In this document: positions 12,308 through 16,366 of the stretch, in pieces
How positions within the stretch are numbered: position 1 is the stretch's first letter
Layout of the letters: each line of letters starts with the position of its first letter
Assembly (NCBI GenBank): GCA_963789955.1
Contig: CAWBMV010000016.1
Span: forward strand, 35,422 to 99,421
Source: an uncultured Candidatus Rokubacteria bacterium
Lineage (GTDB): Bacteria; Methylomirabilota; Methylomirabilia; Rokubacteriales; CSP1-6
DNA: 64,000 bases
Reading direction: 5' to 3'
Made by a program: the position numbers and the translations under genes
Notes under the pieces: generated by a model
Seen by the model: the letters and a program-made list of their open reading frames with translations, nothing else
Databases searched by the model: none
What the model was told of the DNA's origin: nothing

Positions 12308-13943
12308 CTAGCGCGTCGCGCCGCGCGCCGCGGCCAGCACCGAGACCAGGCGCGCGGGATCGACCGGCTTCAGCAGATGGTCGTCGAAGCCGGCGGCGAA
12401 CGCGCGCTCGCGGTCCTTCTGCTGCCCGTAGCCGCTGAGCGCGATCAGCCGGAAACGGTCACCCAGTTTCGAGCGGATCTGTCGGGCAACTTCGTAACCG
12501 TCGATCCCGGGCAGACCGATGTCGATCAGCACGGTGTCGGGCTCGAGCCGCACCGCGAGCTCGACGCCGCTCACGCCGTCTCCCGTGTCGTGGACTTCGT
12601 GCCCGGAGGTCTCGAGCAGGATGCGCATCATCTCGCGATTGTCGGCGTTGTCCTCGACGACCAGGATGCGTCTTTCGCGGCGTCTGCGCCGGTGCACCAC
12701 TGGACTCGCGGGGCGGCTGCGGCACGTCGATCAGCGCCGGAGACGGACGGTGAAGATGCTTCCGCGTCCCGGGCCTTCGCTGGCGGCCTCGACCACGCCC
12801 GCCGTGAAGCTCGACGAGACGCCGGACGAGGCTCAGCCCGACGCCCAGGCCGCCTAGCCGGCGATCGAGATTCCGATCGCCCTGGACGAACAGGTCGAAC
12901 ACGCACGGCAGAAGCTCCGCCGAGATGCCCGCGGCCCTGGTCCGCGACGCGCAGGACCGCGTCGTCCTGCTCCCGGCGGACCGTCACGGTGATGGCGCCG
13001 CCCCGCGGCGTGAATTTCAGCGAATTCGAGAGGAGGTTCGTGATGATCTGCTCGATTCGCGCCCCGTCGCCATCGACCCAGACCGGCTCGGCGTCGACGG
13101 ACACGACATGGTGCCGAAGCTTTTCCGTGCTCTCGAGCGTGGCGAGGCAGCGCTGGACCGCCGCGGCCAAATCGATCGGGGTGCGAACGAGCTCGATCTT
13201 GCCGAGCGCTCACGCGGGTGACGTCGAGGAGGTCACCGACGAGCCGCGGACAGGTGCTCGGCCTGATGCGCGATCACGTCGCGGGCGCGACGGTCGTGCT
13301 CGGGCGACGCGGCCTGACCGAGTATCGTGACGGCGGACGTGATGGCGCCCAGCGGGTTGCGCAGCTCGTGGCCGAGCATCGCCAGGAATTGATCCTTCGC
13401 CTGGCTCGCCGCCTCGGCGTCCGCCCGCGCGGCGCGTGTCCGCGTCAGCTCGATCAGATCGGTGACGACGAGACAGAGGGTCTCGACGCCGTCGGCGACG
13501 AACGCACCCACCGAGAAGAGCGCCGGCACCAAGTGTCCGTCGCTGGCGAGCACATGGCCCTCGTATTTGCCGCGTCCGGCGCGCAGCGCTGCGGTCAAGA
13601 GCGGCCGGTCGGCCTCCGCGACGAATGGAGCCAAGGACCGGCCAACGATGGTCTCGGGCGCGGCAGCAACCAGCTCCGCGAAACGGCGATTGCAGTAGAG
13701 GACGTCCCCCATGGGGGTCAGCGTGAGCGCGCCTTCTTGCATCTGCTCGATGAGCATCCGGTAGGGCTGCTCGGCAGTCTTGAGCGTGAACAGCTGGGGA
13801 CCGTGCGGGCCCTCGACGACGAGCGCATCGATCTCGCCCTGGCGGATCGCGCGCAAGGTCTCCTGGGCTTCCTCGAGCTCTCGCTGGAGCTTCTCGACCT
13901 GCTCACGGTCCATCGAACCGTCCGTCGCGCTCGGTGGTGTCAT
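12308..13943 (-). CDS. PAS - HisKA - HATPase_c - REC hybrid sensor histidine kinase, apparent frameshifts
   Basis: - The ATG at 13943 overlaps the kaiB-2 stop (ATGA).
- PAS region: [41 protein letters not shown].
- H-box: [15 protein letters not shown].
- N/G boxes: [39 protein letters not shown].
- Receiver: [27 protein letters not shown].
- The domains lie in ORFs 13233..14246, 12628..13170, 12459..12902 and 12308..12700, so there are at least 3 frame changes. Confidence 0.75.
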
Positions 13944-14246
13944 GAGTGCTCGACGAGGTCGAGCCCCTCCAGAACCCGCGCGGTGTTCGACATGTCGCCG
14001 ATGACACGGCGGGCCGGGAAGCGGGAGCTCCTTCACGCACGTCGGCGCCGCGATGATCTGCTCGGCGGACGCGCGCGCCGGTTGCTCGTAGAGGTTGACC
14101 ACCTCGAGCTCGTACGCGCCGGCGAAATGCTCTTCGCAGATCGCCCGGATGTTCTCGACGGCCCGCGTCGAGCGCGCGGTCATGCCGGCGACGAACAGTC
14201 GCAGCACGTACGCTCGCTGCGAACCCTGCGGGCCGTGGGATTCCAA
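13940..14246 (-). CDS. kaiB: KaiB paralog 2 (thioredoxin-like clock protein), one apparent frameshift
   Basis: The product is ..RAYVLRLFVAGMTARSTRAVENIRAICEEHFAGAYELEVVNLYEQPARASAEQIIAAPTCVKELPLP. Removing one G near 13990 continues it as [27 protein letters not shown]. Confidence 0.7.
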
Positions 14247-14249
14247 CGC

Positions 14250-14513
14250 TCAGCGCGCCGGTCGGACATCCAGCCCGACGAGGACACGGTCGGTATTCGA
14301 GAGATCTCCGATGATCTTGCGCACCGGCTCGGGCAGAAGCCGGACGAGCGTCGGCACCGCGAGGATCTGATCTCCCGCCGCCAGCTGCGGGTTCTGAATC
14401 AGGTCGATGACCTCGATCCGGTATCGGCCCTTGAGGTGCTCCTCGCAGATCCGCTTGAGATTGGCGAACGCCTTGACCGAGCGAGGCGTCTGCCCGGCGA
14501 TGTACAGCCGCAA
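14250..14513 (-). CDS. kaiB: KaiB
   Basis: The intact [86 protein letters not shown] shows the canonical KaiB pattern. It has a TTG start. A possible longer N-terminus from ATG 14581 would need one frame correction. Confidence 0.85.
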
Positions 14514-14722
14514 GATCTGCTCGATCGGACGGGCGCAGACGTCGGCGACGGTCCGCTCGGACGAATTTCCGTCATCTCCATGACTTCACCGTATACTTAC
14601 CGGTCCTCAGCTACGCCATCGTCGTCACGTTCGCGCCGCGTTCCCACACCGCGTTCGTCACTTTGGATCCGTTGTCGCTCATGTCGGCCGCCGGCTCTCG
14701 GCAATGTCCTGACGCTCGTCGC

Positions 14723-16366
14723 TCAAGCGCGTCGACCCGTGTTCATCTGCTCATCGATCCCGGTGGCCAGATCGGCCTGCTCCGCCTCGAACTTGGCCCG
14801 CATGGATGCCAGCTCCGCCTCGAACGCGGCTCGCAGCCGGGCGAGCGTCCGCTCTTTGCGCTCGATCTCCTGCTGCTGCGCGAGCTCGGCCGCTCGCTCC
14901 TGGGCTTCCTGACGTCAAGCGCGCGGAGCCCGTGAGCACGCCGCCGGCGCCGGCGTAGACGTCGACGAGCTCGATACCATGGTCGGTCAGGAGAAACTCG
15001 CGGATCTGATTGGAGTGACCCATCCCGCGCGACTTGAGCACGTAGAGGCCGCGATTTCTCTCGCCGCTCGACTCGAGCGTGACCAGCAGGAGCCAGGTGT
15101 CGACGATCGACGAGATCTCCGCGTCCGTCTGCTCGAGCTCGGTCTTCCCGTGGGAGAGGCTGGTCATGAGCGCGGTGATGCCCTGCGTCTTGAGGTGGTC
15201 CACGAGCCGGGTCAAGCGTCGACCGGACGTCTGCCGTCGCCGCCACCGACAGCAAGCTGCTCACCGGGTCGAGGATCACCACATCCGGATGGAATCGCTC
15301 GATCGCCCGGTACATCTGCGACAGGTGCATCTCGAGCCCGTGCAGCGCGGGACGAGACGCGTGGTACTCCAGAAGACCACGGTCGATCCACGGCTGCAGG
15401 TCGAGGCCGATCGACCGCATGTTACGGACCACCTGCTGCGGCGATTCCTCGAACAAGAACACCAGGCAGCGTTCTCCGCGCCGGCAGGCCGCGTCGACGA
15501 AGTGGGCGCCCAGGCTGCTCTTGCCGGCGCCGGCGGTGCCGGACACGAGGATCGTGCTGCCCCGGAAGTAGCCTCGGCCTCCGAGCATCGTGTCGAGCCG
15601 GGCGACACCGCTCGAGACGCGCTCGGACGACGCGGCATGACTGAGACCCATCGAGGTGATCGGCAGCACCGCCATCCCGTCCTCGTCGATGAGGAACGGG
15701 TACTCGTTGGTCCCGTGGGACGAGCCGCGGTACTTCACGATGCGAAGGCGCCGCGTGGAGACCTGCTCGGTCACCCGGTGGTCGAGCAGGATCACCGCGT
15801 CCGACACGTATTCTTCGAGGCCCTGTCGCGTGAGGGCGCCGTCGCCTCGCTCGCCGGTGATCACCGCCGTCACGCCCTTGTCCTTGAGCCAGCGGAACAG
15901 GCGGCGCAGCTCGGCCCGTAGAATCGACTCGTTGGCGAGGCCCGAGAAGAGCGATTCGACCGTGTCGAGCACGACGCGGCGGGCTCCGATGGAGTCGATG
16001 GCGAAGCCGAGCCGGACGAAGAGTCCCTCGAGATCGTAGTCACCGGTCTCCTCGATCTCGCTGCGCTCGACCCTGACGTGGTCGAGCACGATCTTCTTCT
16101 TCTCGATCAGCGCCGGAAGGTCGTAGCCGAGCGAGGCGACGTTCTTGGCGAGCTCGTCGTTGCTCTCCTCGAAGCTCATGAACACGCCGGGCTCGTCGAA
16201 CCTGGTCGCGCCGTTGACGAGGAAGCTCATGGCGAAGAGGGTTTTGCCGCAGCCGGCCGAGCCGCAGATCAGGGTGGGCCGGCCGGTCGGCAGGCCTCCT
16301 CCCGTGATCTGATCGAAGCCTTCGATACCGGTGGGCGATTTGGGTAGACGCGGTCACGATGCGCAA
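14723..16366 (-). CDS. kaiC: KaiC homolog (double RecA-like CI/CII ATPase) with a ~62-aa C-terminal coiled-coil-like extension; three apparent frameshifts
   Basis: - CI domain: LPKSPTGIEGFDQITGGGLPTGRPTLICGSAGCGKT .. VFMSFEES.
- CII domain: GYFRGSTILVSGTAGAGKS .. LVFLFEES .. AEISSIVDTWLLL .. LYVLKSRGMGHSNQIREF.
- Frame changes occur near 16340, 15219 and 14912.
- The corrected tail is QEAQERAAELAQQQEIERKERTLARLRAAFEAELASMRAKFEAEQADLATGIDEQMNTGRRA, ending at TGA 14723-14725. Confidence 0.85.

Follow-up and report, generated by a model that had tools for sequence, protein, structure and literature searches.

Does a KaiA-less kai operon in which every gene is broken in the record still encode a working module, and would that module keep time? 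The question is raised by a 64-kb stretch of DNA, here called the window, that carries kaiC, two kaiB genes and a gene for a PAS-HisKA-HATPase-REC hybrid kinase. An earlier sequence-only reading had proposed these four co-oriented genes, and Pfam searches of frame-joined translations bore them out. Their coding signal switches frame about 15 times, and none of the four is a single intact open reading frame (ORF) in the record. The genes and motifs of that reading are thus correct, whereas the reading frames are broken. The locus probably encodes a KaiC2/KaiB module that is KaiA-independent, has a PAS hybrid kinase of its own and is functional in nature, in a Methylomirabilota-like soil bacterium, the breaks being errors of the record.

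Genes were read by three-frame translation of positions 12250–16420 together with the ORF list, and frames were joined before Pfam searches. kaiC lies on the minus strand at 16397→14597. It encodes two KaiC domains, a serine-serine (SS) phosphosite pair and a C-terminal coiled-coil extension of ~90 aa. Frame-joined KaiC matches PF06745 in two stretches (E 4e-106). Both Walker A motifs (GSAGCGKT and GTAGAGKS), both catalytic EE pairs (SFEES and LFEES) and the SS pair, within the phosphosite peptide TDAEISSIVDTW, had been claimed before, and all were read straight from the translation. The phosphosite region is a serine pair with an upstream threonine (T-x4-S-S/T). The Walker A, EE and phosphosite positions show no variation in homologue alignment A1. 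The kaiC start formerly placed at 16366 is wrong; the TTG there is an out-of-frame artefact, and the true start is the ATG at 16397. After two inserted bases are taken out, the N-terminus reads MAS(A)ESSGHDLRIVTRLPKSPTGIEG. The C-terminal extension encoded in the window is LTQEAQERAAELAQQQEIERKERTLARLRAAFEAELASMRAKFEAEQADLATGIDE, and the stop is most likely the TAA at 14599–14597.

Thousands of homologues were found for frame-joined KaiC. The best database matches are 592-aa soil-metagenome proteins with 90–93% identity, and one top match is named as from a Methylomirabilota metagenome-assembled genome (MAG). The orthologue P0001 (93% identical) and P0020, the KaiC of the intact relative L001 (~91% identical to frame-joined window KaiC), were used as stand-ins in scoring. 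P0001 scores 696 bits against Rhodobacter sphaeroides KaiC (KaiC_RS; PDB 8DBA) over residues 17–568, including ~65 residues of the C-terminal coiled coil, and ~343 bits against cyanobacterial KaiC. The alignment to 8DBA reaches residue 555/568, so the extension, which continues for at least ~50 aa past the A-loop, is homologous to the KaiC_RS coiled coil. EISSIV of the window-type protein aligns to GLSSLM of KaiC_RS (S413/S414), and both serine positions are EE in the phosphomimetic entry 8FWI. Identity to R. sphaeroides KaiC is ~57% over the whole alignment. P0020 passes the NCBIfam KaiC model NF006799 (743 bits, cutoff 408) and does not pass the cyanobacterial KaiC equivalog TIGR02655 (358 bits, cutoff 546). 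Two serines at the phosphosite are a hallmark of KaiC2 (PMC5520375). By sequence, the ATPase is assigned as a true double-domain KaiC of the KaiA-independent KaiC2, or R. sphaeroides, type.

Both KaiB genes follow on the minus strand, kaiB-1 at 14581→14250 and kaiB-2, the second-position paralogue, at 14246→13940. Both pass Pfam PF07689 (E 3e-28 and 4e-22, respectively), and the fold-switch G-x-D residues are kept in both (VGLDV, EGLDL). The best PDB match of each is R. sphaeroides KaiB (8FWJ_M), at 100.8 bits for kaiB-1 and 78.5 bits for kaiB-2. Neither passes the KaiB equivalogs NF006798 (102 and 81 bits, cutoff 110) or TIGR02654 (99 and 76 bits, cutoff 145). Both are therefore classed as KaiB2-like and not as cyanobacterial KaiB1 equivalogs. 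Orthologues of kaiB-1 are 105 aa in L001 and 110 aa in the relative L085, both starting MEMTEIRP, and the kaiB-2 orthologue in syntenic relatives is 88 aa. kaiB-2 clusters with second-position KaiBs from other phyla. KaiA (PF07688) has no match in any coding segment of the window supported by GC content at third codon positions (GC3), nor in the Pfam-annotated syntenic contigs, which upholds the earlier statement that the window holds no KaiA-like gene.

These scores also bear on whether the ATPase could instead be a non-clock KaiC-like or RadA-like protein, with the KaiB matches being generic thioredoxin-fold proteins. Such an identity could draw on both KaiBs falling just under the NF006798 cutoff, a model based on cyanobacterial KaiB. 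Against it, the ATPase is a full-length two-domain protein with ~57% identity to KaiC_RS, and its stand-in reaches only 66 bits against a cutoff of 403 for RadA. Both KaiBs pass the Pfam KaiB model with true KaiBs as top PDB matches. A non-clock identity is scarcely conceivable after the KaiC, RadA and KaiB scores, which already refute it.

The last gene of the operon, at 13943→12308 on the minus strand, encodes the hybrid kinase. An N-terminal coiled coil and PAS precede HisKA, which is followed by HATPase_c and a receiver domain (Pfam PAS/PAS_4, HisKA, HATPase_c, Response_reg). The receiver is canonical: it has an ED acidic pocket, VLIDIGLP holds the phospho-acceptor D, and ALSGY and LLKP supply the S and the K. 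In L001 and L085 the intact kinase orthologues are 543 and 533 aa long, respectively. The overlap of the kinase ATG (13943–13941) with the kaiB-2 stop (13942–13940), as ATGA, stands as first described, but only after the break at 14014 is corrected. No SasA-type N-terminal KaiB-like domain was found in the kinase by Pfam. Its N-terminus (13780–13943) has a conserved coiled coil and the motif EETLRAIRxGEVDAxVV...FTLxxAExPYR, which leads into the PAS fold. This coiled-coil/PAS motif is a candidate Kai-coupling module. The Kai genes had been described as hard-wired to a phosphorelay output. The PAS histidine kinase is indeed in the operon; its presence is a family trait and nothing peculiar to the window, since kaiC-kaiB-histidine kinase operons are published for other bacteria.

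Four independent contigs carry intact genes in the window's order, at ~92% identity. The conserved order is luciferase-like monooxygenase (LLM), LigB, Amidohydro_2, KaiC (592 aa), KaiB (105 aa), KaiB (88 aa), histidine kinase (543 aa), MBL-fold protein and ABC transporter. A fifth, shorter contig (L085) holds the MBL-kinase-KaiB-KaiB-KaiC part with intact kai genes, its KaiC being cut by the contig end. Among the matches listed from species-representative genomes, the closest KaiC is 76% identical and comes from a Methylomirabilota MAG. The source is placed as a GC-rich soil bacterium nearest Methylomirabilota (Rokubacteria-like) MAGs. Judged from its Methylomirabilota-named relatives, the host is probably non-phototrophic.

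Frame breaks were mapped by blastn of the window against the intact relatives L001 and L085. kaiC has at least 6, namely insertions at 14914, 15217, ~16351 and ~16387 plus several events at 14750–14660 in its divergent C-terminal tail. kaiB-1 has 1, a deletion of 1 nt relative to L085 at ~14527 in its N-terminal tail, and kaiB-2 has 1, a 1-nt insertion at 14014 that is lacking in L001 and L085. The kinase has 6, with insertions at 12671, 12797, 12931, 13212 and 13247 and a single-base deletion at ~12740. The insertions from 12671 to 15217 (kinase, kaiB-2 and kaiC body) are in neither L001 nor L085, each of which is ~8% diverged from the window. Those at 16351 and 16387 were compared with L001 alone, since L085 ends at 15938. 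All aligned coding sequence together holds 28 one-base insertions, 5 one-base deletions and hardly any longer events. No clear homopolymer link of the indels was evident by eye in the sequence contexts inspected.

The breaks extend well beyond the kai genes. A GC3-based frame decoder flagged ~35 sites window-wide, 6 of them in the kai operon, where coding potential quits a frame without a stop. About 30 further breaks lie in unrelated conserved genes, including those for BamD/YfiO, LigB, LLM, E1 dehydrogenase, DegT, ketoacyl synthase, Wza, sugar transferase, epimerases and asparagine synthases. Single Pfam domains are split over adjacent frames in the E1 dehydrogenase, DegT, ketoacyl synthase, Wza/Poly_export, sugar transferase, several epimerases and the asparagine synthases; the E1 dehydrogenase alpha and beta genes are both among those split. 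Single-base indels, mostly insertions, occur for example at 17758–19252, 23719–23779, 31.8–35 kb, 36.8–38 kb, 43.0–44.8 kb and 48.0–54.9 kb. Such a record suggests an assembly that was polished patchily or not at all. Programmed frameshifting or recoding was considered and rejected: the ~15 sites share no common motif and are not conserved in relatives, and unrelated genes are hit too.

With the window projected on the relatives' frames, the ratio of nonsynonymous to synonymous substitution rates (dN/dS) is 0.07–0.42 in broken genes and 0.03–0.31 in intact flanking genes. Values are 0.18 for KaiC, 0.07 for KaiB-2, 0.24 for the kinase and 0.09 for LigB, which has 8 breaks. The frame-corrected genes have no nonsense codons, bar one in the poorly aligned KaiC tail. 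Frame-corrected KaiC has 1 unique change at columns conserved at ≥98%, against a mean of 1.5 (120 homologues), and this change is located at a hand-chosen junction. Because dN/dS resembles that of intact neighbours, no other stops remain, conserved KaiC columns are kept and the phenomenon is window-wide, the breaks are very likely sequence or assembly errors and not gene decay. The sequence-only reading had counted a locus shown dead by confirmed frameshifts as a refutation; frame breaks do exist, but the evidence points to sequence errors and not to decay.

Several points weigh against a functional module with an erroneous record. The breaks are patchy, being dense in the kai operon (~1 per 300 nt), in LigB and at 48–52 kb, with 0 in the Amidohydro_2, MBL, NusG, inositol phosphatase and MFS genes (5 kb in total). 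True gene-by-gene decay could produce a similar patchy pattern. Public sequencing runs were searched with the window, and the closest share ≤0.14 of its words. No Hpt protein or cognate response regulator lies within the operon, and a day-night role is not evident, since the organism is probably non-phototrophic. The patchiness in particular lends something to a true pseudogene cluster, in which the kai genes, LigB, LLM, BamD and many polysaccharide genes would be decaying by real frameshifts. Breaks crowd some genes while being absent from neighbours of similar length, and the kai region, at 6% of the window, holds 6 of the ~35 coarse flags for a frame switch. Yet at least 6 independent frameshifts per gene predict many neutral substitutions and stops, and dN/dS stays at 0.07–0.24 in KaiC, KaiB-2, the kinase and LigB, with no nonsense codons there outside the KaiC tail and just the one unique change at highly conserved KaiC columns. 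Bacterial pseudogenes show a deletion bias, and the 28:5 excess of insertions with almost no longer events is its opposite. The breaks are also out of step with gene boundaries: 5 fall within 200 nt of LLM, and 0 fall in the central 1.1 kb of kaiC or the first 700 nt of the kinase. Breaks also hit a BamD-like gene, of a kind that is usually indispensable. A decaying cluster is therefore an improbable explanation.

If the genes are intact in nature, the same proteins could serve a timer or a switch. Gene identities, motifs, family placement, synteny, conservation, selection and the break pattern were computed here, and from them and from characterized systems we infer all biochemical steps. In R. 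sphaeroides, the KaiC C-terminal coiled coil joins two hexamers and takes the place of KaiA, and KaiB on the CI ring speeds ATP hydrolysis and dephosphorylation, giving an hourglass set by the ATP:ADP ratio (PMC10076222). By analogy, KaiC hexamers of the window type would pair via their C-terminal coiled coil. Pairing would keep the A-loop region open and so allow nucleotide exchange and autophosphorylation of the SS pair without KaiA. KaiB would bind KaiC at the CI ring in its phosphorylated, post-hydrolysis state and, at a falling ATP:ADP ratio, would speed up both the CI ATPase and dephosphorylation. The outcome would be an environmentally reset hourglass or an energy-state switch and not a free-running clock. 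Gene linkage and interaction data from Pseudomonas suggest that the translationally coupled kinase would sense the KaiC/KaiB state through its N-terminal coiled-coil/PAS module. The kinase would then relay phosphate via its own receiver domain to a putative Hpt protein or response regulator. Candidate roles for the second KaiB, a conserved paralogue, are that of another state-specific binder and that of an adaptor linking KaiC to the PAS protein.

Intact proteins of this kind might instead act as a stress or metabolic-state switch and not as a day-length timer, with KaiC phosphorylation reporting energy or redox state to the kinase and having no timing role. The host lineage, from soil and probably non-phototrophic, favors such a switch. 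KaiC2 homologues are tied to stress response in Legionella (PMC5520375), Pseudomonas KaiC-like proteins bind the adjoining kinase and raise stress resistance (bioRxiv 10.1101/2022.01.26.477890), and in R. sphaeroides, too, it is the ATP:ADP ratio that drives the system (PMC10076222). However, the nearest characterized relatives, R. sphaeroides in vitro and R. palustris in vivo, are hourglass timers under light-dark cycles (PMC10076222, PMC4794148). The two accounts overlap and are not separable by sequence alone; a pure stress switch is held to be unlikely, though well within reason. Family placement and the published systems support the earlier interpretation that KaiA-less KaiBC modules outside cyanobacteria are hourglass-type timers or stress modules.

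Relatives were surveyed by a pattern scan with one genome per species. More than 593 were found, and the best 80 (loci L005–L084) were used. These 80 span Methylomirabilota, Acidobacteriota, Bacteroidota, Verrucomicrobiota, Nitrospirota, Desulfuromonadota, Chloroflexota, Myxococcota, Proteobacteria and Methanoperedens. At 72 loci the sequence extends far enough downstream for kaiB genes to be counted; 38 of these have two in tandem, 25 a single copy and 9 none. Second-position KaiBs are more alike across loci than to their own neighbouring KaiB, with nearest-neighbour class agreement in 106/111. They share the signatures LYQQP, EQIIAAPT and GDMS. All of them (40/40) group together in a neighbour-joining tree, and 37/40 do so by a second distance method. 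The exact split recurs in 21/200 bootstraps, with a mean best-split F of 0.96. Strict monophyly was not upheld by the bootstrap count and the second method. With weak bootstrap support for the exact split, the second KaiB is described as a largely distinct paralogue group, always in second place, and not as a proven clade. No description of tandem kaiB beside KaiC2 was found in the literature searched, a search that was incomplete and gives absence of evidence only.

Downstream of the last kaiB, the next gene nearly always begins a few bases from the kaiB stop, often with a 4-nt overlap. It encodes PAS in 45/47 loci (26/27 with two kaiB genes and 19/20 with one) and a kinase ATPase domain in 33/47. 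The coiled coil and the motif found in the window's kinase head this gene in 45/47 loci, irrespective of the output domain. Outputs at two-kaiB loci are HisKA in 12, HisKA_2 in 2, HisKA_3 in 2, HWE in 1 and GGDEF-EAL in 1, with no catalytic domain in Bacteroidales. Twelve of the two-kaiB loci have a receiver domain in this gene, and 13 one-kaiB loci have HisKA_3. The hybrid kinase of the window is thus one common variant. As a tentative generalization, long-tailed KaiC2 systems could be four-part modules. Their parts would be KaiC2, a canonical KaiB, a largely distinct second KaiB acting as a state-specific adaptor or competitor that couples the KaiC phosphostate to PAS output, and a protein with an invariant N-terminal coiled-coil/PAS module and interchangeable outputs. 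The second KaiB would then correspond in function to the KaiB-like domain of SasA while being the product of its own, translationally coupled gene.

An intact ORF of the Amidohydro_2 family (16410..17678, minus strand) lies just upstream of kaiC with a 10-nt gap. The family was assigned by Pfam (PF04909) on its syntenic orthologue, which has a stop that overlaps with the start of kaiC; an NCBIfam search of this gene gave no match. It may be co-transcribed with kaiC and is lineage-specific context outside the conserved module. On the other side, a gene for an MBL-fold, lactonase-like protein (11461..12297, plus strand) runs towards the kinase gene, with 10 nt between it and the kinase stop, and marks the 3′ boundary of the operon. 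It has a Lactamase_B domain, and its similarity to AidB-type lactonases is weak and below cutoff. The MBL-fold protein is 100% identical in amino acids to that of L085, with the adjoining kai genes only ~92% identical in nucleotides, which suggests very uneven divergence or recombination among soil strains. In a consensus scan of 12.1–17.9 kb, 0 sites resembled a promoter and 1 resembled a terminator, not above the level of shuffles.

Placement of the operon between aromatic-catabolism genes, as first stated, holds only loosely, the neighbours being mixed. They include the Amidohydro_2 protein, a LigB-type dioxygenase, a luciferase-like monooxygenase, the MBL-fold protein, ABC transporter genes and a Rieske oxygenase. 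Relatives encode, 4–6 kb upstream, a free-standing receiver and another PAS hybrid kinase (~2.3 kb, L001 3995–6292) where the window has ~0.5 kb of non-coding sequence at 19965–20554. This stretch consists of two large hairpin repeats, each with an 80-nt loop, whose arms are at 20005–20067/20148–20210 and at 20302–20349/20430–20477, the latter pair 96% complementary. Its structure resembles a REP/MITE-like element or the scar left by a deletion. From 25.5 to 64 kb extends a large cluster for polysaccharide or capsule biosynthesis. It encodes a Wza-like exporter, Wzz, Wzy, Wzi, glycosyltransferases, DegT aminotransferases, epimerases/dehydratases, asparagine-synthase-like amidotransferases and a formyltransferase. 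A small fatty-acid/polyketide-like set is also present, with a ketosynthase, a ketoreductase, a FabA-like protein and an acyl carrier protein.

The kaiC-B-PAS/histidine kinase operon was described in R. palustris and R. sphaeroides by Ma et al. 2016 (PMC4794148). In non-cyanobacteria, a kaiC-kaiB cluster almost always precedes a histidine kinase or GGDEF/EAL gene (De Luca et al. 2011, PMC3164672), and Pseudomonas KaiC-like proteins bind the neighbouring kinase, probably via its PAS (bioRxiv 10.1101/2022.01.26.477890). The window fits this operon type, with co-oriented kaiC and kaiB followed by a PAS-headed signalling gene, and is an ordinary member of the widespread, already described KaiA-independent KaiC/KaiB "hourglass" family with a PAS sensor kinase. 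By itself the locus adds little: operons that join KaiA-less KaiC2/KaiB to a PAS kinase have been published, and automatic annotation labels their proteins KaiC and KaiB. Uncultured Methylomirabilota-like soil bacteria, which have no obvious light-driven lifestyle, keep the module in synteny and under purifying selection, and this conservation bears on the use of Kai timers by non-phototrophs. The most useful outputs are a warning on the quality of the window and a comparative lead on the second KaiB and the common PAS module. The window has about one frame-breaking single-base insertion per 0.3–2 kb, a density that makes pseudogene calls from it unsafe. The second KaiB paralogue and the universal N-terminal PAS module could guide the biochemistry of KaiC2 timer signalling.

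Among known systems, that of R. sphaeroides (PDB 8DBA, 8FWI, 8FWJ; Pitsawong et al. 2023, PMC10076222) shares with the window a double-domain KaiC, an SS pair aligned to S413/S414, a C-terminal coiled-coil extension, the lack of KaiA, the closest KaiB and a PAS histidine kinase in the operon. It differs in its KaiC, at ~57% identity, and in a published operon with one kaiB where the window has two in tandem. The kinase of the window is a hybrid with a C-terminal receiver, and its host is a soil Methylomirabilota-like bacterium and not a purple phototroph. R. palustris (PMC4794148) likewise has the order kaiC, kaiB, PAS histidine kinase, with a predicted single promoter and a KaiA-less proto-circadian timer. 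It is described with one kaiB, and its output, a nitrogen-fixation rhythm and light-dark growth, is tied to phototrophy and not expected here. Legionella pneumophila KaiBC (KaiB Lpp1115, PDB 4KUN) is also a KaiA-less KaiC2/KaiB2-type pair in a heterotroph. Lpp1115 is similar to both window KaiBs (56.8 bits for kaiB-2 and 51.3 for kaiB-1), but the system is much more distant and is tied to stress response, not timing (PMC5520375). The cyanobacterial KaiABC-SasA/CikA-RpaA system has in common with the window the KaiC architecture, Walker A motifs, EE pairs, T-x4-S-S/T, the KaiB G-L-D and a histidine-kinase output. In contrast, the window has no KaiA, SS and not ST at the phosphosite, a C-terminal coiled coil and a KaiC well below the TIGR02655 cutoff. 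Where SasA has an N-terminal KaiB-like domain, the kinase of the window has a PAS N-terminus.

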